A stretch of 37,534 nucleotides of DNA from a virus. Position numbers and translations under genes: made by a program. Positions 3,832 to 28,260 of this stretch are shown here, piece after piece. Where the stretch lies: IMG/VR virus record IMGVR_UViG_3300031867_000233. The stretch is one strand, 5' to 3'. The notes under the pieces are model-generated. The model searched no databases and was not told the DNA's origin. It saw only the letters and a list, made by a program, of their open reading frames with translations. Each line of letters begins with the position of its first letter. Positions within the stretch are counted from its first letter, which is position 1.

Positions 3832-3833
3832 AA

Positions 3834-11783: not shown

Positions 11784-11803
11784 TCTAGAAAGGGGTGAGC
11801 AAT

Positions 11804-12115
11804 ATGGAAATGAGCACTGAAGTAAACAAGGTCAGTGATATTACTGAAGAAAGCGTCGCAGAGTATCTAAGACTGGACGAAGTAACAGACAGTGAAATAA
11901 ATACATTGACCACGCTTATTTCTATTGCAACCTCATTTATCAAGAGCTATACAGGGCTTGACGATGCTGGCGTTGACAAATATCCTGAATTCGTGATTGT
12001 AGTGCTTATTCTTTGTCAGGACATGTGGGACAACCGGACGATGTACGTTGACAGCAAGGACCTGAACAACACGGTGCAGAGTATTCTTGCAATGCACAGT
12101 GTCAATCTGTTGTGA
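11804..12115 (+). CDS. Head-tail connector (gp6-like)
   Basis: About 103 aa with the EYLRLD... motif, positioned right after the MCP gene. ATG 11804 is preferred over GTG 11795. Confidence 0.65.
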   Translation: MEMSTEVNKVSDITEESVAEYLRLDEVTDSEINTLTTLISIATSFIKSYTGLDDAGVDKYPEFVIVVLILCQDMWDNRTMYVDSKDLNNTVQSILAMHSVNLL

Positions 12116-12124
12116 GGTGATTAA

Positions 12125-12451
12125 ATGCTGAATGCAGGGAAGTATTCAAAGCGTATCACAATTTATAAAACTGTAATTGTGACAGATGAAGATGGCTTTC
12201 AGACAGAACAGAAGCAGGTGATACTACAGCCGTATGCGTATGTTCGGACAACAAAAGGATTTACGCTTATTGCAAATAATTCTGATTTTGAAAAAGCATA
12301 CACCAACTTCACGATTCGGTTTCCTAAAACAAAGATCACAAGGGACATGCTGATTGAGTTTCATAAAAAGACATACACAATCGAGTATCTGAACAACGTT
12401 GATGAAAACAGCGTAGAACTTGAGATTCAGGCAAAGGAAGTGACGCACTGA
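12125..12451 (+). CDS. Head closure protein
   Basis: 108 aa. Position and the pattern KRITIY...DEDGF...AYVR are typical of SPP1 gp16/HK97 gp9-like proteins. Confidence 0.6.
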   Translation: MLNAGKYSKRITIYKTVIVTDEDGFQTEQKQVILQPYAYVRTTKGFTLIANNSDFEKAYTNFTIRFPKTKITRDMLIEFHKKTYTIEYLNNVDENSVELEIQAKEVTH

Positions 12452-12879
12452 TGGCGATATTCTCATTTGATATTGATGACAGCGTGATGAAGGATATAAA
12501 TTACATTGACAAGCAGTTTGATCATATCTTTGGTGGCATGACATACGCAGGTGCAGAGGTCGTATACAAGAACGTTATTTCGTCGCTCCCAGGGCAACTG
12601 AAAAGTTCAGGATTCAGCAATTGCGTAAAGCTGTCGAGAGTTTACAAAACTCCATCAGATGATGGCATCAATACGAAAGTCATGATCACAGGGTATTTCA
12701 CCAATGAGAAAGGCAAGAAGACTCCTGCACCGCTGGTTGCTAACATGTTCGAGTATGGCAGTGACAAAAGGAAATATCCAAAGCATCCTTTTTTCAGAAA
12801 GTCTTTCAAAAGGGCACAGATCATGAAAGCCATGGAAGATGCTCAGAAAAAGCTGAGCGGGGGACTATTGGATGAATAA
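12451..12879 (+). CDS. HK97 gp10-like neck/tail component
   Basis: FEYGSDKRKYPKHPFFRKSF resembles the gp10-family 'eyGt....PF' motif. Gene order is consistent. Confidence 0.6.
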   Translation: MAIFSFDIDDSVMKDINYIDKQFDHIFGGMTYAGAEVVYKNVISSLPGQLKSSGFSNCVKLSRVYKTPSDDGINTKVMITGYFTNEKGKKTPAPLVANMFEYGSDKRKYPKHPFFRKSFKRAQIMKAMEDAQKKLSGGLLDE

Positions 12880-13225
12880 CCTCATTGAAAAAACGCTAAA
12901 AGGGTTCACAGTGAACGGCAAGGAAATCCCTGTAAAGTTCTTACGGTATAATGGCAATGAAGAAACATATATCACGTACATGGAAACAGATGCAGAGAGT
13001 ACGTTACATGGCGATGACGAGTTGCTAAATTATACCGAGTATTATGACTTTGATATTTACTCAAAAGGCAATTACAAGCCGATTGTAAAAGCATTAAAGG
13101 CATTGCTTACAAGTGTTGGGTTTATGTGGGAGCCTGACAGATCATCCGAAGATATGTATGAGGATGATACGAAGTATTACCACAAGACATTATGTTTCTC
13201 AATCGAAAGGAGCGCAAATGGCTAA
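12872..13225 (+). CDS. Tail completion/terminator-like protein (assigned by position)
   Basis: 117 aa, immediately upstream of the major tail protein. Confidence 0.45.
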   Translation: MNNLIEKTLKGFTVNGKEIPVKFLRYNGNEETYITYMETDAESTLHGDDELLNYTEYYDFDIYSKGNYKPIVKALKALLTSVGFMWEPDRSSEDMYEDDTKYYHKTLCFSIERSANG

Positions 13226-13778
13226 AATTGGTTTAAATAACTTCAGATATTCAAAGCTGACAGAAACGCCAGAGGGAAAAGCTACTTACGATGGCGCAAA
13301 AAAGCCAGCTAAGGCTATTTCCTGTAAGGTAGATATTTCTAACAACGATGCGACTTTGTATGCCGATGATGGACTTGCTGAGAGCGATACATCTTTCCAG
13401 AAAGGTTCTGTTACAGCAGGAATCGACAATGAGGATGTGCAGACAATGGCAGACCTTCTAGGGCATGAGGTATCAGAAGACGGCAAGGAAATGGTCAGAA
13501 ATGCAAACGATGTTGCACCATATGTAGGTTTCGGGCGAATCGTTACAAAGATGGTAAACGGTGCTTACAAGTACACGGTAGAGTTCCTATGCAAGGTTAA
13601 GTTCTCAGAACCTTCACAGGATGATTCTACCAAAGGAGAAAGCGTATCATTCAGCACAACTGAACTTGCAGGAACGGTTGCAACATTGGCTGATGGCACA
13701 TGGTCAAAATCAAAGACGTTTGATACAAAGACTGAAGCTGTCACATATCTTGAAGGACTGATGGCAAAAACAGTCTAA
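13218..13778 (+). CDS. Major tail protein
   Basis: MAKIGLNNFRYSKL... begins at ATG 13218 after the RBS gaaaggag. It is followed by a strong terminator and the chaperone pair. The upstream extension to 13113 was rejected. Confidence 0.75.
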   Translation: MAKIGLNNFRYSKLTETPEGKATYDGAKKPAKAISCKVDISNNDATLYADDGLAESDTSFQKGSVTAGIDNEDVQTMADLLGHEVSEDGKEMVRNANDVAPYVGFGRIVTKMVNGAYKYTVEFLCKVKFSEPSQDDSTKGESVSFSTTELAGTVATLADGTWSKSKTFDTKTEAVTYLEGLMAKTV

Positions 13779-13790
13779 AAGAATATTTAA

Positions 13791-13817
13791 GGCAGGGTTC
13801 GTCCCTGTCTTATTTTT
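13791..13817 (+). terminator. Rho-independent terminator after the major tail gene
   Basis: GGCAGGG-TTCG-TCCCTGTC followed by TTATTTTT. Confidence 0.75.
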
Positions 13818-13834
13818 ATAGAAAGGACAACAAC

Positions 13835-14197
13835 ATGGCAGATATTAAGGATATTACAAAAGAATTTGAGCACAAAGGAAAGATATACAGGCTTGTTTTC
13901 GACCTGAACGTGATGGAAGCAATTCAGGATAAGTACGGAACTATCGAGAACTGGGGCAAACTCACAGATGGTACAGAAAACGATGGCGAGCCAAATGCAA
14001 AGGCGGTTATTTTTGGTTTCCGTGAAATGATCAACGAGGGTATTGACATCATGAACGAAGAAACAGGAACTGACGTTAAACCGCTGACGTTGAAACAGAC
14101 AGGAAGATTGATCACAGAATACGGACTTTTGAAAGCAACAAAAGTGATGAATAATACTGTTATTGACAGCACACAGAGTGCCGAAAAAAACGTATAA
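13835..14197 (+). CDS. Tail assembly chaperone (gpG-like)
   Basis: 120 aa, positioned between the major tail and tape measure genes. It ends just after a slippery heptamer. Confidence 0.7.
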   Translation: MADIKDITKEFEHKGKIYRLVFDLNVMEAIQDKYGTIENWGKLTDGTENDGEPNAKAVIFGFREMINEGIDIMNEETGTDVKPLTLKQTGRLITEYGLLKATKVMNNTVIDSTQSAEKNV

Positions 14198-14430
14198 TCC
14201 CCGATGAGGTGGATGAACCAGAGCCGATAGACTTCACATGGTTTTATTTCGTTGGCAGAAACAAACTTGGGTTTACATTCCACGAAGTCGGGAGACTTAC
14301 GCTTACAACATTCAACCTGTTTTACAAGCATTACAAGGACGACTTTGACTGTGAAATGGTGTTGAGAAAAACAGGTACAACATATGAGAAAGCATACGAA
14401 AAATTACAGCATGAAGACGACTGGTTCTAA
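13835..14430 (+). CDS. Tail assembly chaperone frameshift fusion (gpGT-like), via a -1 shift at 14185..14191
   Basis: The frame of 14209..14430 is -1 relative to 13835..14197, with no intervening stop after the slip site. Confidence 0.65.
14185..14191 (+). promoter_or_regulatory. -1 programmed ribosomal frameshift slippery site A_AAA_AAC
   Basis: In the zero frame the codons read gaA AAA AAC. The -1 frame is open from 14191 (cgt ata atc ccc gat gag gtg...) into ORF 14209..14430. Confidence 0.7.
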
Positions 14431-14442
14431 GGAGGTGAGCTT

Positions 14443-17276
14443 ATGGCATTAGGTGGAACGATTAAAATCAAGGGCGAAAGTGAGTACAGGCGAGCACTGT
14501 CACAGATCAAACAGAACTTGAGGGAAGTATCTTCCGAAATGAAGATCGTCACGAGCACATATGACAAGAATGACACAAGCACTGGAGCACTGGCGGCTAA
14601 GAGTGATGTTCTGACCAAGCGACTTGAACAGCAGAAAGCGAAACTCAACCTTGTTGCAGAGCAGTACAAGAAGTATGAGGAAGCTGTCAAGAAATCAGCC
14701 GATGAGCATGAACAGCTTGGCACGAAACTGGAAAGCGCAAAGGCAGAGCTTGAGCGCATTGGAAAGACAACCGGAGAAACAAGTGCTGAGTACGAGAAAC
14801 AGAAGAAGGTTGTTGATCAGTTGCAGTCTGAGTATGATGACAGCACAAAGGCACAGGATGTCAATGCAAAGTCACTGTCCAACCTCAAGATTGAGCTAAA
14901 TGGAGCACAGGCTGATGTAAACAAGACATCTAGGGAACTTGACAACCTAGGAAAGTCACAGGAGAAGACAAACGAGGGATGGACTGTCATGAAACAGGTA
15001 CTTGCTGACCTTGCTCATGATGCAATTCAGTCTGCATTCAATGGCATTAAGCAGTTAGGAAGTGCAATCATTGATACAGGCAAGCAGTCACTTGAAGCAT
15101 ATTCAAATTATGAACAGCTTGTCGGTGGCGTTGAAACATTGTTCGGCGCAGGAGGAAAGAGCCTAGAAGAGTATGCTAAAAGCGTCGGCATGAGTGCTGA
15201 CAAAGCAAAAGGGCAGTATGAAAAGCTGATGGGCGCACAGTCAACCGTACTTAAAAATGCGAACAATGCCTACAAGACAGCAGGGCTTAGTGCGAATGAG
15301 TATATGGACACTGTAACAAGTTTCAGTGCATCCCTCATTCAGTCGCTTGGTGGAGATACGGCAAAAGCCGCCAAGTATGCCAATACAGCAATCACAGACA
15401 TGTCGGATAATGCCAACAAGATGGGTACTGATATGTCATCATTGCAGAACGCATACTCAGGATTTGCCAAAGGCAATTACACGATGTTAGACAATTTGAA
15501 ACTAGGTAAAACCCACTATTGCCTAGTATAAACCTCGCGAAAACGGTGAAACCCTTTGAAATAAGGCGATACCGTGCGAAGCCCCTTAAAGGGGAACGTG
15601 TAACGACTATCGAAAACACACAAATATGTGGAAGTGAGTAGAGTACACGCAAGTGCGTGGAAGTGCGAGGTAGCCCAAACGGGTGAAAGAGATAGTCTAA
15701 TCTCTATAGTGATATAGAGCAGTTCCTAAGAGAACGGCATGAGATTAACGACCTCATGTGAATATAAATGTATGGTGGTACAAAGGAAGAAATGCAGAGA
15801 CTTCTTAAGGATGCCGAGAAGCTACCAGGGGCCATGGGACGAAAGTTCAATCTTTCCAATTATGCCGATGTGGTCGAAGCTATCCATCTTGTGCAGGACC
15901 ATATGGGAATCACAGGAACAACGGCAAAAGAAGCAAGCACAACTATTGAAGGTTCTACAAATGCGATGAAATCGGCATGGCAGAATTTACTCACAGGCAT
16001 GGCTGACGATAACGCCAATTTCGGAGAATTGGTCGGAAATCTGGTTGACAGTGTTACAACATTCGGAAAGAATGTGATACCAAGAGTACAGCAGATCATC
16101 AAGGGAATGGCGCAGGTGGCAACACAGTTGCTACAGGAAGTGGTACCGCAGATTGTTAAAGAAATTCCTCCGCTTCTGTCAGAAACACTTCCGATGCTGA
16201 TTGATGCACTGACAGCAGTGGGACAGAGCGTTATTCAGGTATTGCCGACATTAATGCCGATTGTTTCGGATGGGATTATGCAGATCGTACAGGGAATCAT
16301 TACACTGTTGCCAGAGTTCCTTAATGCAGGATTGCAAATGCTAACATCCTTGATACAAGGCATTACGCAGGCATTGCCACAGCTAATAGACATGTTGCCA
16401 ACAATCGTACAGCAGACAGCAGATGTAATCATTCAGAATTTGCCAACAATCATACAGGCAGGCTTGCAGTTGCTTGTTGCACTGATTAACGGTATTGTGA
16501 AGGCGTTGCCACAATTAATAGCCATGCTACCAACGATCATAGGGACAATCGAAGGAATATTAATAGCTAACTTGCCACTTATCATCAAAACAGGTTTTCA
16601 GATTCTTGTAGCACTGATAAAAGGCTTGATTCAGTCACTGCCACAGCTCATTGCATGGACACCACGAGTAATCAGGGCAATCGTAAGTGTTCTGGTTCAA
16701 AACTTGCCAAAAATGCTATCTATGGGTGGACAGCTTTTAGGATCACTCATCAGTGGTATTGGTTCAAAGATTGGAAACTTGGGCAGTGCAATTGGAAATG
16801 TTGCAACTAAAATCATTGACGGCATAAAGCACATACCAGGAAAGATGATCAAATGGGGCAAAGACATGATCCAGGGCTTGATTGATGGTATCAAGGGCAT
16901 GATTGGCAAAGTCGGTGACGCAGTTGGTGGAGTAGCCAATAAAATCAAATCATTCCTTCATTTCTCAAGGCCGGACGAAGGGCCTTTGGCTGAGTATGAA
17001 AGCTGGATGCCTGACATGGTGGAAGGAATGAGCGATTCCTTAAGAAAGGCAAGTCCAGAGCTTATTGACCAGACTAAGGCACTGGCACAGGGAATGTCCG
17101 ATGCAATGACTGTGAATGGCACTATAACAGGCACTGGCGTAGGATATGGAGGTTCATCCTTCGATTCAATGGTGTCAGCATTCAAGGATGCACTATCACA
17201 GGTCAAGATCGAGATGGACGACGAAGAAATGGGCCATTTTGTTGACAAAACGGTGACGAAACTGATTTATTATTAA
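14443..17276 (+). CDS. Tape measure protein, two exons (14443..15507 + 15771..17276, 856 aa after splicing)
   Basis: Joining ...MLDNLKLG to YGGTKEEMQRLLKDAEKL restores the conserved TMP motif NLKLGYGGT. It has a coiled-coil N-terminus and hydrophobic repeats (LPQLI..LPTII). Confidence 0.85.
15508..15770 (+). ncRNA. ORF-less group I intron (IA2, T4 td-like), 263 nt
   Basis: Exon 1 ends in U and the intron ends in G. P1 pairs cuaggu (15502-07) with gccuag (15521-26), including a U-G at the splice site. P10 pairs ccacuau (15512-18) with auggugg (15772-78). P7 pairs gacuau (15605-10) with auaguc (15692-97). A P9 hairpin cucuauaGUGAuauagag is present, and the 3' hairpin caugagAUUAACGACcucaug has the same loop I recall in the T4 td intron. 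Confidence 0.88.
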
Positions 17277-17288
17277 GGCGGTGAAAAT

Positions 17289-17990
17289 ATGAGAAACTAC
17301 GTTATTCAAAATGGAAAAGACAGCCGATATTTAAAAGGATTGCTGATTCAGGAGTTGCCACCGATTACAAAGCCATTGATGCGCACAAGCATTGAGCAGA
17401 TAGACGGGCGTGACGGTGATGTTATAACCCGTCTAGGCTATTCTGCATACGATAAAAAAATGAAGATTGGTCTGTTTGGAGATTATGACATTGACGATAT
17501 TATTCCGTTTTTTAATTCAAGCGGAACGGTGATATTTTCAAATGAGCCAGAAAAATACTACGTGTATGATATTCTGGATGCGATTGATTATGAACGGCTT
17601 ATGAGATTCAGAACGGCTGAGATCACGTATCATGTACAGCCATTCAAATACAGCAGTATCGAGAAACTGAAAGTGTTCAGCAATCTGACAAGTGCTATCA
17701 CAGTAAGAAATAACGGTAATTATGTATCAAAGCCGATCATTCATATCAAAGGAACAGGGACTATCAATCTGTCGCTGAATGGCGTGCAGTTATTCCGTAT
17801 TGAATTGAGTACGACAAATTCCATCACGATAGACACTGAAAAACTTGAAGCGTACAATGACGATATATGGATGAACAGATACGTTGTTGGCAATTATGAC
17901 AAGTTCGTTCTCAATGTTGGGTCTAACTCCGTATCATGGGATGGTCAGCTAACATATATTGCATTTGAAAAAATATCGAGGTGGATTTAA
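17289..17990 (+). CDS. Distal tail protein (Dit)
   Basis: 233 aa, directly after the TMP gene. The pattern ...IEQIDGRDGDV...YSAYDKKMKIGLFG is typical of the siphovirus tail family. Confidence 0.75.
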   Translation: MRNYVIQNGKDSRYLKGLLIQELPPITKPLMRTSIEQIDGRDGDVITRLGYSAYDKKMKIGLFGDYDIDDIIPFFNSSGTVIFSNEPEKYYVYDILDAIDYERLMRFRTAEITYHVQPFKYSSIEKLKVFSNLTSAITVRNNGNYVSKPIIHIKGTGTINLSLNGVQLFRIELSTTNSITIDTEKLEAYNDDIWMNRYVVGNYDKFVLNVGSNSVSWDGQLTYIAFEKISRWI

Positions 17991-18337
17991 TGGAAAAAAT
18001 GAATCTTGAAATGATCAGAGGGGACACGCTGAGCTTTGCATTCGAGGTTGAGTATGATGAAGCTTTGCAAAAACTGGACAGTGCATACTTCACATGCAAA
18101 GAGAACTTCGATGATGATGCGCCGATATTCAAAAAGTCGTTAGGGCATGGCATCACATTGGCAAAGCAGGAAGATGGAAAGCTGTACTATGTAGTACGTG
18201 TTGCTCCTGAAGATACGGAAAGTGTTGAGCCGGGGCTTTATTATTACGATTTGCAAATTGGCATCAATGGCGATGTGTTCTCAATACTGATTGGCTCGTT
18301 AAAAATTCATAGTGATGTAACGATAGGGGTGAACTAA
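17990..18337 (+). CDS. Small beta-sandwich-like virion protein (115 aa), function unknown
   Basis: MEKMNLEMIRGDTLSFAFEV...PEDTESVEPGLYYYDLQI resembles Ig-like decoration or fibre-adaptor domains. The ATG overlaps the Dit stop codon. Confidence 0.55.
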   Translation: MEKMNLEMIRGDTLSFAFEVEYDEALQKLDSAYFTCKENFDDDAPIFKKSLGHGITLAKQEDGKLYYVVRVAPEDTESVEPGLYYYDLQIGINGDVFSILIGSLKIHSDVTIGVN

Positions 18338-18338
18338 T

Positions 18339-21300
18339 ATGAATGATTTTTTAAAAAAACCGCTCGTTAAAGTCCTTATGTTGAAGGGCGAAAAAGGCGA
18401 AACAGGAGATGTAAGCAAAGAAAATTTTGACAATTCAATAAACGATTTAACCAATTTGATATCAAATAATCGTAGCAGAATAGACGATGCTCAGAATGGA
18501 ATAAAGACTGCTAATAGCAGAATAGACAATCTTATTGTATCTAGTGGAAGTGATTCCAGTGCAGAAGTCATTGACGCAAGAACTGGATATGATGGAACAT
18601 CATATGATACACTAGGTATAGCCGTCAGAGAACAGATCGCCGGACTGAAAAAGGAGATTGACGAAAAGGGAGTAACTGACGGTAGTATTACCGAGGAGAA
18701 ACTCTCCGACGAGTTAGCCGCTAAGGTAAATAGTGCCGGTTATGTTATCGGTGCTGACGGTAAAAAGTACAGTATCGCGATCGACGTTAACGGTAATGTT
18801 AGCGCGGATCGTATTTACGAGATCAGTACCGACGGTCTGTTATGCGATATTCAAATTGTCGACGGTGCGGTCGTAGATACTACCGGTAACGTCGATACGT
18901 CCGGTTTTGTCGTTACTGACGATTATTTTGTCGGTGACAGTCCAATGTACGGAGCCGCGAGAGGTACAAACATTATCGACGGCCATAGTTTAGGTAGCCG
19001 TACTATTATTTTCCTCGCGGATTTGGACGAGGCTCATCATACTATATTCGGTAATGGTGATACTATGTATGGATTACGTTGGGGTAAAAAAGCGACTAGT
19101 AATAGTGACGCGTTTACGACTTTTAGTAAGATTTTAGCGCCGGTACAAGAATTTAGAAACGCCTACAATTTAGCTTATGATATTTACAGTAAAGCGAATA
19201 TCACAAAAGATCCTCTTGTGATTTCCGATTATAACGATATGTTTTTTGTACTCTCAGTTGATACCGAAAATAGTAAGTATTTCGCCGGTTGGAATGAATT
19301 TATAGGCGACGAAATTTCTTACGATTACGCTAATTATCCAGCTCTAACGAGTATCCGTCTTTTTAAAGGCGCTACTAATGATATTGCAAAATTTAAGCGA
19401 GTTATCGTTTATGATAGGGCGCTCACTAAAGACGAGGTTAACGAACTGAGAGAAAAGATCATGCTACTTTATTATACTCAGTGGTATAACTCAACGACAT
19501 TTGTTCAGGGTATGACCGGTCTCGGATCTCCGTCCGCTTATCAAGTAAGATCGAGCGAAAGAGTACCGGAATTTATCGATACTCCTATCGAGTCCGGCGA
19601 GCAGACTATTACTATCAACGGCGAGGATAGAACGTTTATTAACGTAGATCCTACGGAGCCGACTATCGACGACGATATGAGTTATGTCGAGGCGCTCTAT
19701 TGGCTTAATCCGATCGAGTCTCTTAACGTTGGAGATATGTATAATATCGAGGCTATGGTTTATCCGTATAATGTTACCGAAAATAGTTATAATGTCGAGT
19801 ATGTTTCCTCTAATCCGTCCGTTATCGAATGTTATTACGGCGTCCTAATTGCAAAAAAAGCCGGATCGGCAACTATTACCGCTAAGGCCTCCGGTACCGA
19901 AATTACTTGTACGTTGGATATTACAGTCGCAGAGGTGGAGAACGTAGTCGAGAATTTCTTTAAAGTATCCGAGCAATTTATTTATAAAGGTAATCAGTTA
20001 GTCGGAGGCGACGGAGTGAATACCTTAAAAGCGATTGTCGGAGCAATCGAACAGGCAAGCGCTAACGGTTATAACGGCGTGGTATTTCCTAAAATGGATT
20101 ATCATGTTAAGCCTTATAAAAAGGACGTAATTTGTTACGTTCCTAGTGATTTCACCGTCGATTTTAACGGATCTACGCTTTACGTAGAGGATAACGATTT
20201 TTGTCATACTACAGACAGTCGACCGGATAAATCCGTCAATCCGTATACTATGTTTTCTTTTTCCGGGTTTAAGGTTAAAGACGAGGACAGAAATCAGATA
20301 GAGGATAAATATTATATGAGTTGTAAAAACTCAGTCGTTAAAAATTTACATTATTACGGCGAGCGTCGACTAATGTCCGATCTGGGTTACGCGAATGGAG
20401 ATTACGGAGAACAGGTAAAAGCGTTTGCATTTTCGACCGGTGCGTATAATTGCAAAATCGAAAATATTAATTTTTATGATACCGTCGGTTTTAATATTGC
20501 TACCATGACGAACAGTTTCGACCAATGGAGCGGTACAGGATTAGACGGGGCCGTCCGAGGTTGTGTACGATATAGCGATTTTATCCTCGGAAAACTCGAC
20601 AAAACAGGTTTAACCGCCTCAGAGGACGGAGATTGGTATCATACTGATTTCTTAAAACTCGGATATAATTACTCAGATAATCCGACAGGTAGTAAGGATA
20701 TGAAATACTATAAGGTCGGTGAAATGAACGTAGCGACTACCTACGGTTTAAGTACAAGGTGGTATGAAATTTACTGGTTTGACGCCGATAAAAATCTTAT
20801 CGAGTATCGTACTCACCAAATGACACTCGAAAGTTATTTACTCCCGGAAAACGCCGTATACTTTAAAGTTAACGCGAGATTTCCTAGTGGCGCTCCTACG
20901 TCCTCCAATGAAGGTAAGGTCGATACTCCTCATGTTATTAGAGTATGGCCTAGCGTGGATCCGGATAGATGCTATATCCGTAATTGTAAATTTTATAATC
21001 CTCACGCGAGCGCTATCTCTATGACAGGCGGTACTAATTTCGTACTGAGCGATATTTTCGCCGAAAACGGCCATTCTCCGTTGGGCGTTTGGTCTATCGA
21101 CTATGAGGACGGTTGGCAAGCTATGAGACACAATATCAATTATCGGATCATTTGTACCGGTATTTTAACTATGCCTGGCGGTCATAATACGGCAACTTTA
21201 CACTCCGTCATTAACACGGCTCGAAGTGGTCCGGAGACTGAGGCGGTTAAATATATTAATTGTGCTATTCAGACCTTACAGCCGTCTCCTAAGACTAACG

Positions 21301-21431
21301 ATTTAATCGCTAATGTTACTTACGGAGGAGATATTAAGAGTTATGGACAGTCCTCGCTTAAGTATCAATTAAAGGCGGCGAGACTTAGAGAGGTAAATTG
21401 TATTAAAAATACCGCTATGAACGTGATTTAA
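18339..21431 (+). CDS. Tail fibre / receptor-binding protein with a predicted polysaccharide depolymerase (1030 aa)
   Basis: Read N- to C-terminus: a collagen-like GEKGETGD; a fibre motif SAEVIDARTGYDGTSYDTLG; a LamG/ConA-like region (IRLFKGATND..VIVYDRALTKDEVNEL); a Big_2-like Ig domain (VEYVSSNPSVIECYYGVLIAKKAGSATITAKASGTE); then a long region consistent with a right-handed beta-helix (NGYNGVVFPKMDYHV...NCKIENINFYD...IRNCKFYNPHASAISMTGG). Confidence 0.75.
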   Translation: MNDFLKKPLVKVLMLKGEKGETGDVSKENFDNSINDLTNLISNNRSRIDDAQNGIKTANSRIDNLIVSSGSDSSAEVIDARTGYDGTSYDTLGIAVREQIAGLKKEIDEKGVTDGSITEEKLSDELAAKVNSAGYVIGADGKKYSIAIDVNGNVSADRIYEISTDGLLCDIQIVDGAVVDTTGNVDTSGFVVTDDYFVGDSPMYGAARGTNIIDGHSLGSRTIIFLADLDEAHHTIFGNGDTMYGLRWGKKATSNSDAFTTFSKILAPVQEFRNAYNLAYDIYSKANITKDPLVISDYNDMFFVLSVDTENSKYFAGWNEFIGDEISYDYANYPALTSIRLFKGATNDIAKFKRVIVYDRALTKDEVNELREKIMLLYYTQWYNSTTFVQGMTGLGSPSAYQVRSSERVPEFIDTPIESGEQTITINGEDRTFINVDPTEPTIDDDMSYVEALYWLNPIESLNVGDMYNIEAMVYPYNVTENSYNVEYVSSNPSVIECYYGVLIAKKAGSATITAKASGTEITCTLDITVAEVENVVENFFKVSEQFIYKGNQLVGGDGVNTLKAIVGAIEQASANGYNGVVFPKMDYHVKPYKKDVICYVPSDFTVDFNGSTLYVEDNDFCHTTDSRPDKSVNPYTMFSFSGFKVKDEDRNQIEDKYYMSCKNSVVKNLHYYGERRLMSDLGYANGDYGEQVKAFAFSTGAYNCKIENINFYDTVGFNIATMTNSFDQWSGTGLDGAVRGCVRYSDFILGKLDKTGLTASEDGDWYHTDFLKLGYNYSDNPTGSKDMKYYKVGEMNVATTYGLSTRWYEIYWFDADKNLIEYRTHQMTLESYLLPENAVYFKVNARFPSGAPTSSNEGKVDTPHVIRVWPSVDPDRCYIRNCKFYNPHASAISMTGGTNFVLSDIFAENGHSPLGVWSIDYEDGWQAMRHNINYRIICTGILTMPGGHNTATLHSVINTARSGPETEAVKYINCAIQTLQPSPKTNDLIANVTYGGDIKSYGQSSLKYQLKAARLREVNCIKNTAMNVI

Positions 21432-21506
21432 GGAGATGATAACGTGTTAAATATGAATTTAACTGAGGGGATATCGGATTATCAGACGGAACACATCTAG
21501 GTGGTA

Positions 21507-21701
21507 ATGGACAAGAACAATTTTATAAAAAATATTCGGCTTTTATCAATAGACTTTAGTCAACTAAAGCAGACTAAAGGAACTCTTGTTGAGTTTGAAA
21601 ATTTAACATTTGATTCATGTACGCTTAATATTAGTGATGAAAGCCAAGAAATAAGCATTCATGGTGGGATTAGAAAATTAAAGGAGGAGCTAAATGATTA
21701 G
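21507..21701 (+). CDS. Hypothetical protein (about 64 aa), very AT-rich
   Basis: The ORF lies between the fibre gene and Tal. The start (GTG 21501 or ATG 21507) is uncertain. Confidence 0.35.
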   Translation: MDKNNFIKNIRLLSIDFSQLKQTKGTLVEFENLTFDSCTLNISDESQEISIHGGIRKLKEELND

Positions 21702-23355
21702 AATATTTTCTCCTGACGATAAAATATTTACGTCAAATGGTGATTCGGTTATCCAACCATTCAAGGCAAAAGTGCATAAAGAGGATAACGGCTCATTCTA
21801 TCTGGATATCGAAGCAGACCTATCATATGTTGATATTCTGACAGCAAACAGGATTGTGGTTGCAGATACGCCACAGGGCGCACAGGCATTCCGCATCAAG
21901 AATCCAGAAAAGACAAAACATAAGATCACGATAAAGGCACCACATATCTCATATGATGCAGAAAACTACGTGATTGCAGACAGCTATGTTGTTGACAAAA
22001 ATTGCAACGATGCAATGGACCATCTGAACAGTGCCACGGACAATCCTAGCCCTTTTCAGACGTATTCTGATATTGCCATGGTAGATTCCTACAGGTGTGT
22101 GAGAACATCGCTGTATGACGCTTTTGGCACGGTTCTTGAGCGCTGGGGTGGGCACTTTGTGCGTGACAATTACAGGTTTGGCATAATGAGAACCATCGGG
22201 CGTGATAACGGCGTGACTGTGCGATACAAGAAAAACCTTAAGGAAATGACATGCACGGCGAACTGGGACAGCGTTGTGACAAAGCTCATGCCAGTCGGGA
22301 AAGACGGCTTGCTGTTGGATGAGGTATATCTTTACAGCAATACGCAGTACGATATTCCTTTTACAAAGGTCGTGTCTTTCAACCAGGATATTGATCAGGA
22401 TTTATACAAGGATGCTGACGGCAATCTTGACGAGGTTGCGTACAATAACGCATTGATTGAGGATCTGAGAAAGCAGGGGCAGGCATATGTTGATGAAAAC
22501 TGCGTTCCAAAAGTGAATTACACGTTAAAGGCAAACGTTGAAAAACTGACGGATATAGGCGATACAATTGAAGTCATTGACGAACCGATGGGTGTGGATA
22601 TTGTAACGCACGTTATTTCGTATGACTATGACTGCATTCTAGGCAAGTATACGGAGCTTGAGTTTGGAAATTTTCAGCAGAAGGTTTCTGACCTTATGGG
22701 AACAGTTAGCGCAACAATCGAGCAGAGTGTTGAAAAAAAAAATGCGAGCTTACAGGTTGTATTCTCAGATGCAATTCAGCAGGCACAGGACACAATTCTA
22801 GGAATGCTTGGCAATTCGTATGTCGTGTATGAAGGCGACAAGATTCTGGTTGTTGACGCATTGCCAAAAGAAGAAGCACACAACGTTATTATGATCAACA
22901 GCGGTGGAATTGGGTTCTCAAGTACTGGAATCAATGGAACATTCGAGAGTGCATGGACGATTGATAACACCTTGAATATGCAACATATCAACGTTATAAA
23001 TTTAGTTGCTGACATGATCAAGGGCGGAACATTGAAGCTCGGCTCTAACCTTAACCAGAACGGACAGATTGAAGTCTACGATGAAGCGAATAATCTGATT
23101 GCAAAACTGGACAAAAACGGGCTTATCATGTATGGGCTTGACGGTTCATATCTTGTGGTCAATAATTATGTCGGTTTTGCAGGATATGACCGCACGGGAG
23201 CCAAAACATTCTGGGTTTCAGGTGACGAGTTCCATCAGAAAAAATCTGTTATCGAGGAAGAGATCACGTTATGCAACAAGGCAAGGCTTATTCCGATAAC
23301 TGTAAAAGATGGCGATACTGTTACAAATGACGGCATCGGCATTGTGGGGGTATAA
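21694..23355 (+). CDS. Tail-associated lysin / baseplate hub protein (Tal, prophage tail endopeptidase family)
   Basis: MIRIFSPDDKIFTSNGDSVIQPFKAKVHKEDNGSFYLDIE... is the typical N-terminus of the 'phage minor structural protein' family. The RBS is aaaggaggag. Confidence 0.75.
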   Translation: MIRIFSPDDKIFTSNGDSVIQPFKAKVHKEDNGSFYLDIEADLSYVDILTANRIVVADTPQGAQAFRIKNPEKTKHKITIKAPHISYDAENYVIADSYVVDKNCNDAMDHLNSATDNPSPFQTYSDIAMVDSYRCVRTSLYDAFGTVLERWGGHFVRDNYRFGIMRTIGRDNGVTVRYKKNLKEMTCTANWDSVVTKLMPVGKDGLLLDEVYLYSNTQYDIPFTKVVSFNQDIDQDLYKDADGNLDEVAYNNALIEDLRKQGQAYVDENCVPKVNYTLKANVEKLTDIGDTIEVIDEPMGVDIVTHVISYDYDCILGKYTELEFGNFQQKVSDLMGTVSATIEQSVEKKNASLQVVFSDAIQQAQDTILGMLGNSYVVYEGDKILVVDALPKEEAHNVIMINSGGIGFSSTGINGTFESAWTIDNTLNMQHINVINLVADMIKGGTLKLGSNLNQNGQIEVYDEANNLIAKLDKNGLIMYGLDGSYLVVNNYVGFAGYDRTGAKTFWVSGDEFHQKKSVIEEEITLCNKARLIPITVKDGDTVTNDGIGIVGV

Positions 23356-23356
23356 A

Positions 23357-25075
23357 ATGGCGACATCAGGAACATTCAAGACATCAGAATATGAAGGCGC
23401 ATGCCTACAGTTCGACTGGACGCTGAAAAAACAGAGTACAGCCAACAATCAGTCTGTTATCTCGTGGACATTAAAAGGAGCAGGGATTAAGTCTGGCTAT
23501 TGGTACATGGCGGGGCCTTTCAAGTGCGTTATAAATGGGACTACAGTTTATCAGTCAAGCACAAGAATTAAGCTATACACTGGAACGGTTGTTGCATCTG
23601 GAGAGCTTGCAATCGGGCATGATACAAACGGTTCAAAGTCATTCAGTGCATATGCAGAGTGTGCAATCTATACATCTGCTGTAAACTGCAAAGGCTCTGA
23701 CAGTTGGAGCCTTCCGGACATAGGCAGGGCATCACAGCCAAGTTTGAATACATGGCCAAATAATTCTCCAAATTTCAACATCGGAGACACGATTGTTGTA
23801 CACATGAACCGAAAGTCAACAGTATTTACGCATACCGTTGTGCTGAAGCTAGGCTCATATAGTTATACCATCGGCACAGGTGTAACGGACAACATTTCAC
23901 TGGATACAGACAGGATTGCATCTAATCTTTATGCGCAAATGCCAAACAGCAATTCTATGGCGGGAGAGATAACTGTCACAACGTACAGTGGCAGTGCGGT
24001 TATAGGAACATCAAGCTGTGCAATCATTGCACACGTTGTAAATTCTAATCCGACATTTGATGTTTCGTATGAGGATTCAAATTCTAAAACGGTTGCAATC
24101 ACAGAAAATAATCAGTACATTATCAGGAATAACTCTGCGTTAAAAATCAGTGTAAGCAATGCAAGGGCGTTAAACAGTGCCACGTTGAAATCAATTACTG
24201 CTGTTGTAAATGGAAATGCTTATACAGGCACGTTAAATGGCTCTACAGGCACAATCAATGTCGGTGTGGTAAATGTATCATACGACACTGAAGTGACCGT
24301 TAAATTGATGGATTCAAGGGGAAATGAGGGCATCAGAGAGATCACGGTGCTTGTGTATGACTGGACATTGCCAAGTGCAATCATCAAGCTGAACCGCAAG
24401 AGCAATTACTATTCAGAAAGCATCTTGAATGTCAATGCAAATTATTCCTCAATAGGTGGTAAAAACTCAGTCACAATTAAGTACCGCACGAAGAAGGTTG
24501 CAAACAGCACATATAGTACGTATACAGCAATCCAGAATAACGTTGATGCGAATTTTACAGCTGATAACGAGTATGAATGGAATGTGCAAATTAATATTGC
24601 AGACAAGCTAGGCAATACAACATACAATCTGATTCTTCCGAAGGGTATTCCAATTGCTTATGCTGACATCAAGAAATACAGCTTTGGTGTGAATTGCTTT
24701 CCGAAGTTCGACAACAGCCTTGAAGTCAATGGCATGTGCATTAGCGGTCAGGTGCTTTATAACAGCACGAGCGGAACAGCAGGAACCGTCACATTGTCAG
24801 ACAGTGCGGAAAATTACACATATCTTGAAATCTTTTACAGATCGTCTGGTGATAATGCTTGTGGCAGTGTTAAGGTATTCAGCCCGAACGGAAAGCTCGT
24901 GCATTTAGGCACGATTCATTATATTGCAGATTATGACTATGCAAAGTTTGCTCTTGTAAGTGTGTCGGGGTCAATGATCACATTCAGTCAGAATTACCAG
25001 ATCACTATTAAGAACAACGGCTCAGCATATTCAGCTGAAAATGCAATTTTTATAACAAGAGTGGTTGGATATTAA
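23357..25075 (+). CDS. Second receptor-binding / fibre-like structural protein (572 aa, DUF859-like N-terminus)
   Basis: MATSGTFKTSEYEGACLQFDWTLKKQSTANNQSVISWTLKGAG resembles siphovirus DUF859-type tail proteins. It is the last gene of the structural operon. ATG 23357 is preferred over 23309. Confidence 0.6.
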   Translation: MATSGTFKTSEYEGACLQFDWTLKKQSTANNQSVISWTLKGAGIKSGYWYMAGPFKCVINGTTVYQSSTRIKLYTGTVVASGELAIGHDTNGSKSFSAYAECAIYTSAVNCKGSDSWSLPDIGRASQPSLNTWPNNSPNFNIGDTIVVHMNRKSTVFTHTVVLKLGSYSYTIGTGVTDNISLDTDRIASNLYAQMPNSNSMAGEITVTTYSGSAVIGTSSCAIIAHVVNSNPTFDVSYEDSNSKTVAITENNQYIIRNNSALKISVSNARALNSATLKSITAVVNGNAYTGTLNGSTGTINVGVVNVSYDTEVTVKLMDSRGNEGIREITVLVYDWTLPSAIIKLNRKSNYYSESILNVNANYSSIGGKNSVTIKYRTKKVANSTYSTYTAIQNNVDANFTADNEYEWNVQINIADKLGNTTYNLILPKGIPIAYADIKKYSFGVNCFPKFDNSLEVNGMCISGQVLYNSTSGTAGTVTLSDSAENYTYLEIFYRSSGDNACGSVKVFSPNGKLVHLGTIHYIADYDYAKFALVSVSGSMITFSQNYQITIKNNGSAYSAENAIFITRVVGY

Positions 25076-25131
25076 ATAAAATAATGATATACTATTGGTG
25101 CAGTGTTTTCATGTTCACTGTATTCCTTTCT

Positions 25132-25167
25132 CAGCCTTGCCGAGGGTCCGGCGGGCTGTTTTTTTAT
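25132..25167 (+). terminator. Rho-independent terminator ending the structural operon
   Basis: CAGCCTTGCCGAGGGTCCGGCGGGCTG followed by TTTTTTTATTT. Confidence 0.7.
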
Positions 25168-25220
25168 TTGCAAAATTCTATACTAACTTGTCATAGCCTA
25201 CAGGTTACATAATATTAGTA

Positions 25221-25250
25221 AAGAAAAAGTCACCGCTTGCATTCGGTGAC
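25221..25250 (-). terminator. Rho-independent terminator for the integrase gene (- strand)
   Basis: GTCACCG(25229-35)...CGGTGAC(25244-50). On the - strand the hairpin is followed by TTTTTCTTT. Confidence 0.6.
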
Positions 25251-25335
25251 TGATTGGTATATATTATAAGTGTCATTTTAATTGACATCTGATCATAAAT
25301 TCTCCTGGTAAAGAGCAGACAGAAATGCCTGCTTT

Positions 25336-26670
25336 TTACTTGAAGAAAACTTCTATTCCATCAGGTGAAACATGGACAGAATCAATGATATTTCGCCACA
25401 GCGTGCGCTTGTTTTCACGTGTGAGGTTCTCATATATTGATTGCCAGCCGGTATTTAGAAATTGTTGCAGATGGTCTGTATTTTTTGGCTTGATGGATTC
25501 AAGCCTTTTTATTTTGTTTTCCGTTTCGGCGTACAGACGTTCATAGGTACTTACAGGCATACGCTTCTTGATGAAGATATAATTCAGATTGTCAAGCTCT
25601 TTTCTTAGTTCTTTCAATTCCTTTTCGGTTGTGTTCTTTGTTTCAGATGTGATGCTTGATATTGTGGCTATATGGTCCTTAAGCAGGGTATCAAGGTTAG
25701 ACAGCAGATATTTTTCCGTTGACAGTTCCGCATAGTGCTTTTTGTGGTTGCATGTATGCACCGAGTGGGCATTGTTGCATCTGTAATAATAGTATCGTTT
25801 ACCGCCTTTCGGATGGCTCACTCCGACCAGCTTAGAACGGCATTCTGGGCATCTTAACAGTCCAGTGAATAAATATGTATGGCGCTGTATTCCAGTGCGT
25901 ATATTAGCCTGTAATGCGGTCTGAACGGCATTGTATGTGTCTCGTGTGATGTAAGGTTCGGCGTAATTGGAGTTTCCACGGTATGATCCTGCATAAAATT
26001 CATTCTTTAATATGTGCATATATGACATATAAGGTCGAGACAGTCCGTATTTATTGTTTACGTATTCGACTGTATGATGGACTGACTGATGCAGGAGAAA
26101 TGACGAGAAGATGTCTTTCACTATTGGCGCTTTGGATTCATCAATCACAATGCGTTTATTACCGTTTTCCGTTGCAATCCTGTAACCAAAAGGGACATTG
26201 CCAGTTATAGGCTGACCTTGTGCGACTTTGTACTCAAACACAGCCTTGATGCGTTCAGAGCCTTTTTTCAGTTCGTGTTCCGCAAGGTTGACTTTAAGGT
26301 TGAACATAAACAATCCGTTCGCAGTGGACGTGTTTATATCGTCCTCACATATGGAAATCATGGCAACGTCATTCTGTTGAAGAAGTTCAAGCATCTTGTT
26401 AGCCTCAAGGACGTTACGTGACAGGCGGTCAAGTCGTGTGAAAGCTATGGCATCAAGATCACGAAGATTTGACAGCATGAGTTGCAGTTGAGGGCGTTTC
26501 ATTGTGCTTGCTGAATAGCCTTCGTCTACATAAATGTGTTGCAGGTCATGATCGTTATCGTTGCACCATTGCGTTATTTCTTCAGTCTGGGCTTGTATTG
26601 AGTATCCATATTTCTTTTGCTCGTCAGTGGAAACACGGGCATATCCTGCCACTCGCAGTTTTTTTCTCAT
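25336..26670 (-). CDS. Large serine recombinase (integrase)
   Basis: MRKKLRVAGYARVSTDEQ... is a resolvase catalytic domain. The length is 444 aa, and a Cys-rich zinc-ribbon region (LLRCPECRSKL...YYYRCNN) is present. Confidence 0.9.
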   Translation of the reverse strand: MRKKLRVAGYARVSTDEQKKYGYSIQAQTEEITQWCNDNDHDLQHIYVDEGYSASTMKRPQLQLMLSNLRDLDAIAFTRLDRLSRNVLEANKMLELLQQNDVAMISICEDDINTSTANGLFMFNLKVNLAEHELKKGSERIKAVFEYKVAQGQPITGNVPFGYRIATENGNKRIVIDESKAPIVKDIFSSFLLHQSVHHTVEYVNNKYGLSRPYMSYMHILKNEFYAGSYRGNSNYAEPYITRDTYNAVQTALQANIRTGIQRHTYLFTGLLRCPECRSKLVGVSHPKGGKRYYYYRCNNAHSVHTCNHKKHYAELSTEKYLLSNLDTLLKDHIATISSITSETKNTTEKELKELRKELDNLNYIFIKKRMPVSTYERLYAETENKIKRLESIKPKNTDHLQQFLNTGWQSIYENLTRENKRTLWRNIIDSVHVSPDGIEVFFK

Positions 26671-26693
26671 AAAAAATACCTCCGATTGATTGA

Positions 26694-26743
26694 AAATAAA
26701 AAAAGCAGTCCATACTAGCCGATGAGGGCGGTGAAAATATGGA
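26694..26743 (-). terminator. Possible terminator between the repressor and integrase genes (- strand)
   Basis: GTCCATA(26707-13)/TATGGAC(26737-43) with a T-run on the - strand. The 23-nt loop makes this a weak call. Confidence 0.3.
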
Positions 26744-26844
26744 CGCAGAAAAAATATATTCGTTGCTGTTTGGATTGTATGCTGAACAGGAAAATCTCAA
26801 AATTGAATATGAGTTAGACAGCTCTTTTTTTTCGACAGATGGTT

Positions 26845-27186
26845 TCAATCAGAAACATTCTTGCTGTCAAGGTACAGTTTCATTATCTTCAGATACAGCT
26901 CGTCCTTCTCAGGTTCCGGAAGATCGTGAAACAGAGACTCGATGCGCAGTGTGAGGTCTGTTGCTTCATCATAGTTTGATGTATCAATGCCAAAATATGA
27001 AATGTCGATGCCGTATACTTCACAAAAACGTTTCAGAGTGGAAAGAGTCAGGGAACGTTTTCCAGATTCAATATTAGATATTGCAGGCCTTGAAAGCCCG
27101 ACAAGTTCAGCAAGTTCAGACTGTTTAAGATCACGGGATTTGCGCAGTTCTTTTAGTTTCCTTCCGATTGATTTGTTGTTGATCAT
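26845..27186 (-). CDS. cI-like repressor (XRE-family HTH, 113 aa)
   Basis: IGRKLKELRKSRDLKQSELAELVGLSRPAISNIESGKRSLTLSTL is an XRE helix-turn-helix. It is divergent from the Cro-like gene. Confidence 0.85.
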   Translation of the reverse strand: MINNKSIGRKLKELRKSRDLKQSELAELVGLSRPAISNIESGKRSLTLSTLKRFCEVYGIDISYFGIDTSNYDEATDLTLRIESLFHDLPEPEKDELYLKIMKLYLDSKNVSD

Positions 27187-27233
27187 TATTTTTACACCAC
27201 CTAAAAAAGTTTATATTTCGATGATAACATAAC

Positions 27234-27310
27234 GTTGCTATTTGAAACAATAAAAAAATAATCGTCTTTTGATGAAAAGTAATTGCAATTTGATGACAAG
27301 AGTTTATAAT
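27234..27310 (+). promoter_or_regulatory. Immunity-region control DNA: degenerate palindrome GTTGCTATTTGAAAC (27234..27248) and rightward promoter TTGCAA (27283-88), 16-nt spacer, TATAAT (27305-10)
   Basis: Read directly in the cI/cro intergenic region. The palindrome differs by one half-site base from GTTTC-N5-GAAAC. Confidence 0.55.
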
Positions 27311-27334
27311 GTAAATCAAGAAAGGGGGAACGAA

Positions 27335-27529
27335 ATGAAAAGAGCAGAACTGAAAGCATTCAGGATGTCAAAGGGATTCACTCAGAAGGATGTTGCAGAA
27401 ATGCTTGGAATATCAACGAGCCATTATGCCTGCATCGAGCAGGGAACGCACAATCCTTCTACAAAGATTGTCAAAGCGTTCTGCAAAGAATTTGGTAAGG
27501 AAAATGCAAATTTGATTATTGGGAGCTGA
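27335..27529 (+). CDS. Cro-like HTH regulator (64 aa)
   Basis: FRMSKGFTQKDVAEMLGISTSHYACIEQG is an XRE HTH. The ATG at 27335 follows the RBS aaagggggaa. Confidence 0.8.
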   Translation: MKRAELKAFRMSKGFTQKDVAEMLGISTSHYACIEQGTHNPSTKIVKAFCKEFGKENANLIIGS

Positions 27530-27533
27530 AAAC

Positions 27534-27656
27534 ATGTTTGACATCGTAGCAAAAATCGTAAAAAGCGGTAACGCAGAAGAATTAAGAGAAATCATTAAAC
27601 AGTACGAAATTGATGTTTCAAAAAGAAAGGAAAACAAGAAAAATGAAGGGATTTGA
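27534..27656 (+). CDS. Small hypothetical ORF (40 aa)
   Basis: The ATG follows gggag, and the ORF fills the gap between cro and erf. It is below the ORF-track cutoff and was translated by hand (MFDIVAKIVKSGNAEELREIIKQYEIDVSKRKENKKNEGI). Confidence 0.3.
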   Translation: MFDIVAKIVKSGNAEELREIIKQYEIDVSKRKENKKNEGI

Positions 27657-28260
27657 AGACATTACACCAGAGATTGCAACAGATTTGATTGAGCTGGTAA
27701 ATCAGTTAAGAGGACTTGAAAAGTCTGCACAGGTCAAATATTCCGTGAAGAATCGTAGTACAGGAGAATGGACTCATAAATCATTTGATTATGTGCCATT
27801 GGACAACATCTTAAACAAAATCAAGGAAAATCAGAACTTTGCATTGCTACAGCCTATTGGAATTGATGAAAACGGCATCTGTGGCGTGCGGTGTGTATTA
27901 GTGCACAAGAGCGGACACGTATTTGAAACAAACACCTATCCGTTTGCAGTAAAGGAAGGCGCAAAGCTACAGGATGAGGGAGCAGAGATCACATACCGCA
28001 AGCGTTATTCATTGGGTGCATTCCTTGGCATGGCAACAGAGGAAGATACAGACGGAAACGATGATGAAGCAACGAACAGCACGGAACGCAAGGCATCGCC
28101 AAGACAGGTAGAAGTATTGAGCAAGATTTACACAGGCGAGAATCTTGAAAAGCTGTTAAGGATGAACAATATCGAAAAGCTGGAAGACATGCCAATGTCG
28201 AAGGCAAGCGAGTTGATTGGTAAGAACATGAAGCATAGAAAGGCGGAAAAACATGACTAA
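27643..28260 (+). CDS. erf: ERF-family single-strand annealing protein
   Basis: ...FDYVPLDNILNKIKE...GAEITYRKRYSLGAFLGMATEEDTDGND matches the Erf core as I recall it. Confidence 0.75.
   Translation: MKGFEDITPEIATDLIELVNQLRGLEKSAQVKYSVKNRSTGEWTHKSFDYVPLDNILNKIKENQNFALLQPIGIDENGICGVRCVLVHKSGHVFETNTYPFAVKEGAKLQDEGAEITYRKRYSLGAFLGMATEEDTDGNDDEATNSTERKASPRQVEVLSKIYTGENLEKLLRMNNIEKLEDMPMSKASELIGKNMKHRKAEKHD

Follow-up and report, generated by a model that had tools for sequence, protein, structure and literature searches.

Phages of Gram-positive bacteria, such as those of Streptococcus thermophilus and the lactococcal phages, exchange receptor-binding and tail-fibre modules at conserved linkers. 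In this study, we have analysed a viral stretch of 37,534 nucleotides (IMG/VR record IMGVR_UViG_3300031867_000233, hereafter the window; its sequence is also present as metagenome contig ENA ERZ27256863 k141_1169380) and, within it, the open reading frame (ORF) of 1030 amino acids (aa) that lies between the genes for Dit (distal tail protein) and Tal. Our results indicate that this ORF very probably records a recent swap, in which the C-terminal module of a depolymerase-like tail protein (hereafter the cassette) came from an unrelated phage and was joined to a resident anchor. As in the exchanges described for other Gram-positive phages, the reading frame is kept through a crossover at a short conserved motif, with an anchor specific to the lineage on one side and a distal module open to swapping on the other. 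Unlike in those exchanges, the two parents of the window belong to unrelated phage groups with opposite oligonucleotide signatures, so that the joint is visible by composition alone. Modular exchange of tail enzymes is already well known; in the present case, both parents can be named.

From its sequence, the gut phage of the window appears to be a temperate siphophage with kinship to the c5-like phages (Cequinquevirus) of Lactobacillus delbrueckii. These are its closest isolated relatives (77-78% identity in the large terminase subunit, TerL, ~60% in Tal, 57% in Dit and 50% in the small protein encoded after Dit), and megablast of window positions 14-26 kb against 50,697 phage records gave no match. 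In this group, Cornelissen et al. (2016, as relayed in PMC7476776) placed a virion-borne glycerophosphodiesterase (GDPD) activity in the Ld17 baseplate. The gene order of the related phage Ld25A is Dit, a 112-aa gene, an 878-aa GDPD protein, a collagen-repeat gene, an 'adsorption' gene and Tal. The window resembles this Ld17/Ld25A gp17 arrangement in that its 1030-aa ORF comes after Dit and a 112-118-aa gene and upstream of Tal, its neighbours are homologous, and the extreme N-terminus is similar, if weakly (30% over 104 aa in a pairwise comparison with the first ~100 residues of the Ld25A GDPD protein, E = 2e-4). It differs from gp17 in having no GDPD domain (there is no significant Pfam match of any kind in the window protein), in its C-terminal 937 residues, which are unrelated and include a beta-helix, and in lacking the collagen-repeat and 'adsorption' genes that come after gp17 in Ld25A. 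The Ld25A GDPD gene is compositionally normal, so that a foreign composition is no constant trait of this slot.

The parent of the backbone is best represented by a sister phage, L106 (ENA ERZ28594401 scaffold_713, 37,517 bp), which has the same gene order as the window and ~92% DNA identity to it over positions 8877-18616 and 21665-28243. In the slot, L106 has a 510-aa GDPD protein and then directly Tal. Because L106 is collinear with the window on both sides, the replaced segment can be delimited as 18617-21664. A first, sequence-only reading of the window had seen a cassette inserted between Dit and Tal. Since both Ld25A and L106 carry a gene for a GDPD enzyme at this place, the wide gap between Dit and Tal is a feature of the lineage and not an insertion, and only the C-terminal module of the resident gene was exchanged; comparison with a relative did yield a phage without the cassette, but its slot is not empty. 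As judged from these gene orders, the slot would be that of a resident baseplate-attached enzyme, in which a short anchor at the N-terminus is combined with a C-terminal activity that can be exchanged.

The same reading had noticed that the ORF turns CpG-rich at about 18.62 kb, after its conserved N-terminal anchor, and stays so until about 21.50 kb. Sliding windows bear this out, with CpG observed/expected ratios (O/E, 300-nt windows) of 1.5-2.1 across 18601-21300 and of ~0.4-1.4 elsewhere, and a recount reproduces exactly the hand counts behind it (9 CpG in 18841-18900, 1 CpG in 16441-16500). Over the cassette (18627-21431, 2,805 nt), the CpG O/E is 1.86, as compared to 0.854 ± 0.078 (mean ± sd, maximum 1.02) in 289 background windows of cassette length, a distance of ~13 sd. 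Segmentation by first-order Markov likelihood returned 18679-21482 as the single best anomalous segment. Throughout, G+C content is flat (0.414 in the cassette, 0.41 and 0.39 in the backbone).

The proposal that the shift consists of CpG-containing codons did not hold. Per 1000 codons, CpG at codon junctions amounts to 167 in the cassette versus 53 in the background and at positions 2-3 (NCG codons) to 56 versus 34, with positions 1-2 (CGN codons) unchanged (15 versus 14). From these counts per codon position, the excess is a codon-context effect to which CpG-containing codons contribute a small share. We then compared the cassette with 2000 versions in which synonymous codons were permuted within the gene, thereby keeping both protein and codon usage. 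Naming each junction by the last base of one codon and the first base of the next, C-G junctions (155 observed, 78.7 ± 5.8 expected) and T-A junctions (185 and 129.5) are in excess, and T-G (55 and 136.6) and C-A (24 and 72.1) are depleted. Based on these results, we infer that the underlying signal is an avoidance of CA/TG, with CG and TA as compensating gains. The symmetrised dinucleotide rho values run the same way (CG 1.84, TA 1.23 and CA/TG 0.58 in the cassette; 0.81-0.87, 0.66-0.72 and 1.25-1.28 in the backbone), every CA-containing trinucleotide is depleted in the cassette, GCA/TGC the most (0.37), and the observed/expected ratio of C-G junctions is 1.22 in the N-terminal anchor versus 2.08 in the cassette. 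Where coding DNA avoids CA/TG, codons ending in C would tend to precede G and those ending in T to precede A, which would raise CpG and leave G+C unchanged. As in horizontally acquired islands recognised by their dinucleotide signature (Karlin's delta*), the segment departs from its own genome and matches another one; unlike such islands, it keeps the G+C content of its surroundings, the signal being an exchange of CA and TG for CG and TA that is strongest at codon junctions. A strong CpG excess is also found in some Clostridia chromosomes, without a CA/TG purge of the cassette type: the chromosomal nrdD locus of a Candidatus Scatosoma sp. metagenome-assembled genome (L034) has a CG rho of 1.73 at 41.7% G+C, with normal TA (0.81) and CA/TG (0.79).

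A donor with very different sequence biases had been postulated, and a genome of that type was found. L114 (ENA ERZ27291628 k119_1371271, 41,154 bp) is 97.6% identical in DNA to window 18615-21487, and a 3.5-kb contig (L011) agrees with this at 97.1%. In L114, the gene encodes 1130 aa with a different N-terminus and stands between an HNH gene and the gene of the small terminase subunit (TerS) of an unrelated siphophage. The flanks of the L114 copy have the cassette's kind of composition (CG 1.30, TA 1.25 and CA/TG 0.60 at a G+C of 0.409), with CA/TG at 0.45-0.77 in every 1.5-kb window, and the L114 genes are depleted most at codon junctions (0.38 and 0.45), less at positions 2-3 and least at positions 1-2. 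L009, a phage related to L114, carries a cassette that is 46% identical in the same HNH-TerS slot and shows the same avoidance. We also compared the cassette with 80 Clostridia chromosomal loci, which were anchored on NrdD and taken from other Clostridia species, with no Anaerostipes among them. The delta* distance from the cassette is 0.133 for the L114 flanks, 0.11-0.15 for the L009 flanks, 0.311 for the window backbone and at least 0.216 for the chromosomal loci; the 4-mer correlations (r) are 0.76, 0.74, -0.23 and -0.41 to +0.33, respectively. The L009 TerL is 92% identical to proteins named 'terminase large subunit [Anaerostipes hadrus]' by NCBI, which relates the donor group to A. hadrus prophages. 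The segment thus has a signature unlike that of the resident genome and like that of the donor genome, between flanks that are collinear with a relative lacking it, which is the pattern of a recent transfer.

It could be argued that the bias belongs to the gene itself: selection acting on translation, mRNA or DNA, for instance through a codon-pair preference, would maintain it, and it would accompany the gene from any donor. Cassettes 46-92% identical in aa occur in at least five other unrelated phage backgrounds, each with its own N-terminus; these include Blautia-type prophages (~47% G+C, CpG O/E 1.0-1.15), a phage with 35% G+C and a CpG O/E of 0.5, and a copy with a BppU_N anchor. In every background examined, the composition of the cassette differs from that of its flanks. 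Two observations speak for an intrinsic property: C-G junctions are at 1.56-2.1 times expectation in all family members, and the cassette is more extreme than the L114 flanks (CG rho 1.7-1.9 versus 1.2-1.45). We nevertheless consider it improbable, because the CA/TG avoidance is shared by L114/L009 genes that have nothing to do with the cassette (primase, NrdD, terminase, portal, capsid), and because the Blautia-type prophage copies have lost much of the signal (CA/TG rho 0.87-0.93, CG 1.36-1.43). At C-G sites shared between the two, the window has C where the Blautia type has T in 44 cases, the reverse occurring in 7. This weaker signal is consistent with decay after a longer residence.

The ends of the segment inform on the direction of the transfer. 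In a four-way alignment, the left joint falls in frame at ~18616-18620, within the motif ..G-Y-D-G-T-x-Y..G-x-A-V-R followed by E-Q-I (variants G-Y/A-D/E-G-T-x-Y), which is common to different protein families; alignments with L106 and L114 thus agree with the earlier suggestion that the compositional shift inside the ORF marks a recombination joint. On the right, the donor homology stops at 21487-21489 and backbone homology is back at 21665, so that the replaced segment runs further than the earlier boundary at about 21500. Past the ORF stop, the window tracks L114 for 58 nt, through intergenic bases and 16 codons of the next gene (VLNMNLTEG.SDYQTE), before diverging at ~21490; in this truncated gene, the window reads VLNMNLTEGISDYQTE and then a stop, and L114 continues VLNMNLTEGVSDYQTEGL... 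Together, the composition and the truncated fragment of a donor gene indicate that the transfer went from an L114-type to a window-type phage. The 3' flank had also been described as AT-rich, and its G+C is indeed 32% over 21432-21693; no terminator-like site was found in it. The 64-codon ORF at 21507-21701, which overlaps the start of Tal, is an annotated gene in public assemblies; it has no PHROG match and no homologue among the loci compared.

A transfer in the reverse direction, or an independent acquisition of the module by both phages from a bacterial chromosome, is very improbable. Cellular versions of the enzyme do exist, as distant family members have SLH, dockerin or choline-binding domains. 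Against such an origin, the composition of the cassette fits the L114/L009 genomes and not the window backbone, the window holds a truncated piece of the phage gene that is next to the cassette in L114, L106, the sister phage, fills the slot with another module, and no cassette relative was found in 185,579 species-representative genomes. Finally, that the join arose during metagenome assembly, as a chimera of two phages with a common motif, is scarcely credible: the left joint does lie in a motif shared between families, where assemblers can switch, and the second, identical assembly (Logan SRR9036512, identical over 14.8 kb across both joints) possibly comes from the same sample as the window, but the right joint has no shared sequence, and the anchor-plus-cassette build recurs in five further non-identical proteins of 1027-1030 aa (95.5-99.9% aa identity), encoded on other contigs that reach 32.6 kb, some of these proteins having diverged anchors.

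Therefore we favour a recent swap of the C-terminal module onto the resident anchor, for which the following course can be proposed. In an ancestor of the window phage, a C-terminal activity, probably a glycerophosphodiesterase as in L106, would have given way to ~2.87 kb of DNA from a phage of the unrelated L114/L009 type, whose closest named relatives are A. hadrus prophages. The left crossover would have taken place in frame, within a motif that many such proteins have in common, and the right end would have been left untidy, with the 16 donor codons and ~175 nt of filler. The cassette would still show the CA/TG avoidance of the donor lineage because its arrival is too recent for change, as seen from its 97.6% identity to the donor type. 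The protein would sit on the baseplate through its resident anchor, its Big_2 and beta-helix part would bind or cleave a polysaccharide of the host surface, and the new module could change which cells the phage adsorbs to.

The domain architecture proposed earlier (LamG, Big_2 and beta-helix) was upheld for the last two. By PHROGs, the N-terminus belongs to phrog_4577 'tail protein', and an Ig-like domain is at residues 461-538. A full-length AlphaFold2 model was too poor for use (pLDDT 50), and only a C-terminal model was retained. This model (residues 535-1030, 496 residues), built on an alignment of 48 family sequences from a library-wide search with 722 relatives at E <= 0.001, is a right-handed beta-helix with a pLDDT of 91.3. 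The best Foldseek matches in PDB are GH110 alpha-1,3-galactosidases, the adhesin PfbA, mannuronan epimerases (AlgE) and the HK620 and CBA120 tailspikes, and those in BFVD are tailspikes and pectate-lyase-like proteins, so that the beta-helix is of the tailspike/glycosidase type. Among the 48 family members, Pfam finds Big_2 in 15 and Beta_helix in 5, and a few have SLH, dockerin or choline-binding domains. LamG was not confirmed: it has no Pfam match in the window protein or in the 48 family members, the only hint being a sialidase lectin domain at E = 0.035 in a profile search. PDB sequence searches with two profiles gave only low-complexity, Big_2 and a weak lectin match. Membership in GH110 by sequence was considered and rejected, as the best fold match, although at E = 7e-8, has 9-11% identity and a TM-score of 0.18-0.31, and no GH110 chain appears in the PDB profile search. 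The C-terminus is like the beta-helix tailspikes and depolymerases (HK620, CBA120 TSP3, Klebsiella KP34p57) and GH110 in its fold class according to Foldseek, and unlike them in sequence, with ~10% identity and no Pfam or PDB sequence match. The 1030-aa protein most likely is a baseplate-anchored protein that binds or degrades host surface polysaccharide, with a putative enzymatic activity, substrate and effect on host range.

Several observations weigh against this account of the swap and of its product. The filler at 21490-21664 has no source among L106, L114 and the other loci compared. The CG rho of the cassette (1.84) exceeds that of the L114 flanks (1.30), so that the L114 genome does not fully account for the cassette. 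A meeting of donor and recipient in one cell is presumptive. With respect to the protein, attachment to the virion is suggested by the position of the gene between Dit and Tal and by the N-terminus only, the Foldseek PDB matches reach E = 7e-8 to 1e-4 with TM-scores of only 0.2-0.44 at ~10% identity, and we identified no catalytic residues and no sequence-level match to a characterised enzyme. Because of these low TM-scores and identities and the lack of identified catalytic residues, an adhesin such as PfbA is as compatible with the data as an enzyme.

The exchange nevertheless offers a worked example of how gut phages retool adsorption, with one anchor and interchangeable enzymes, in which parents, joints and direction could be recovered from public data. 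Window-like N-termini are also fused to GDPD, SGNH, metallophosphatase, peptidase M14, pectate-lyase-like and metallo-beta-lactamase domains. Through the gene flow seen here, the Cequinquevirus-like group is connected with prophages of the Anaerostipes and Blautia types, implying that hosts overlap or that intermediates exist. Scans of IMG/VR and JGI metagenomes yielded Blautia-type copies only, and tblastn of the 1030-aa ORF against the 50,697 phage records gave a single distant match, in a Bacillus phage, without the shared signature. In the A. hadrus-type phages (L102-L105, L009 and L114), the HNH-TerS interval is a variable cargo slot, which holds, depending on the relative, an 817-aa pectate-lyase-like protein, a pair of 759-aa and 613-aa proteins, three ORFs with a GDSL lipase, or the beta-helix cassette. 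Immediately downstream of the cassette, on the opposite strand, a gene for a family-2 glycosyltransferase is found in two unrelated phage backgrounds (L005:14916-15512, L006:14584-15513 and L010:13477-13842). This gene may travel with the cassette; the window is without it.

The part of these results that could be new is the CA/TG purge of the donor lineage. The terminase genes of L009 (13667-15319) and of L102 (10001-11773), an ordinary A. hadrus-type prophage with 36% G+C, a CG rho of 1.21 and CA/TG of 0.92, are 92% identical in protein and 77% in DNA. Between them, L009 has 143 CG, 47 TG and 40 CA dinucleotides and L102 has 86, 108 and 68; 102 CA/TG dinucleotides occur in L102 only and 29 in L009 only, and 40 differences are TG-to-CG. 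These directional differences indicate that the L114/L009 lineage has been driven away from CA/TG. In this lineage, CA/TG rho is ~0.6 overall and ~0.4 at codon junctions, the most avoided words being GCA/TGC, CTGC and TGCA. Avoidance of one restriction-type motif in L114 was considered and rejected, as the depletion is general for CA/TG and follows no single palindrome. The signature was seen in none of the 80 Clostridia chromosomal loci sampled, and literature searches on CA/TG-depleted phage or bacterial genomes returned nothing relevant. A phage-specific pressure removing CA/TG dinucleotides genome-wide from the L114/L009 phages is possible, and we put it forward tentatively, as doubtful. 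If it does exist, and if the host genome is without the bias, this would point to an undescribed driver of CA/TG loss, which could be a context-specific mutation or repair process, or an escape from a nuclease or defence system whose recognition motifs contain CA/TG; the window cassette would then be a tracer of this driver, moving into other phages. The signature can also serve as a marker for DNA leaving the donor lineage, and its cause could concern phage-host conflict.

Table 1. Features of the tail region of the window, in gene order (positions are those of the window).
Feature	Position	Strand	Evidence or remark
TMP (in two ORFs)	14443-15531 and 15768-17276		
Dit (distal tail protein), resident backbone	17289..17990	+	phrog_33 Dit, E = 2.8e-28; 57% identity to Ld25A tail component; DNA ~92% to L106
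118-aa conserved small protein, between Dit and enzyme gene	17981..18337	+	phrog_1084; 50% identity to Ld25A gp16, same position
1030-aa ORF	18339-21431	+	
Resident N-terminal anchor, residues 1-93 of the ORF	18339..18616	+	DNA 95% to L106 up to 18637; has KGEKGETGD and motif ..DARTGYDGTSY..G.AVR
Very probably imported coding module, residues 94-1030: linker, beta-rich region, Big_2 (~461-538), beta-helix (535-1030)	18617..21431	+	97.6% nt to L114, 97.1% to L011
Donor 3' flank: intergenic bases, then the start of the donor's downstream gene (284 aa), truncated here after 16 codons (from 21444)	21432..21489	+	base-by-base alignment with L114 to ~21489
AT-rich filler (~175 nt), bulk of the 64-codon ORF inside	21490..21664	+	matches none of L106, L114 and the other loci compared
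Backbone restart and ribosome-binding site, then Tal	21665..23355	+	~91% identity to L106 from 21665 on
Tal	21694-23355	+	Pfam Prophage_tail, E = 1.5e-22; ~60% identity to Ld25A antireceptor
DUF859 tail protein, final gene of the tail module	23309..25075	+	Pfam DUF859, E = 2.4e-28; phrog_372
Serine integrase		-	downstream in gene order after the DUF859 tail protein

The remainder of the window phage (the tail region is summarised in Table 1) has some features of its own. The TMP gene is split by a group I intron at 15468-15719 (Rfam RF00028, 71 bits, full-length match); in L106 and L107, the intron site also holds an ORF for a 182-aa HNH/NUMOD4 homing endonuclease, which the window does not have. 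Between an HNH gene and the terminase genes, positions 2986-6550 are occupied by a four-gene block that encodes two 'TET-associated glycosyltransferases' (PF20691; phrog_842, beta-glucosyl-HMC-alpha-glucosyltransferase), a ParB_N protein and a UDP-galactopyranose mutase. This block may serve the hypermodification of DNA with a sugar, or glycan conversion; no TET or C5-methyltransferase was seen among the window ORFs scanned. The protein clusters of the portal, integrase and Dit of the window phage contain from 55 to ~1,280 sequences each. Among the cluster members listed, the longest contigs are genome-sized (37-40 kb) and none lies inside a long bacterial contig, despite the serine integrase and the CI/Cro-like repressors of the window phage. 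By 4-mer signature, the backbone comes nearest to chromosomal loci of Ruminococcus and Lachnospiraceae (r = 0.70-0.74).

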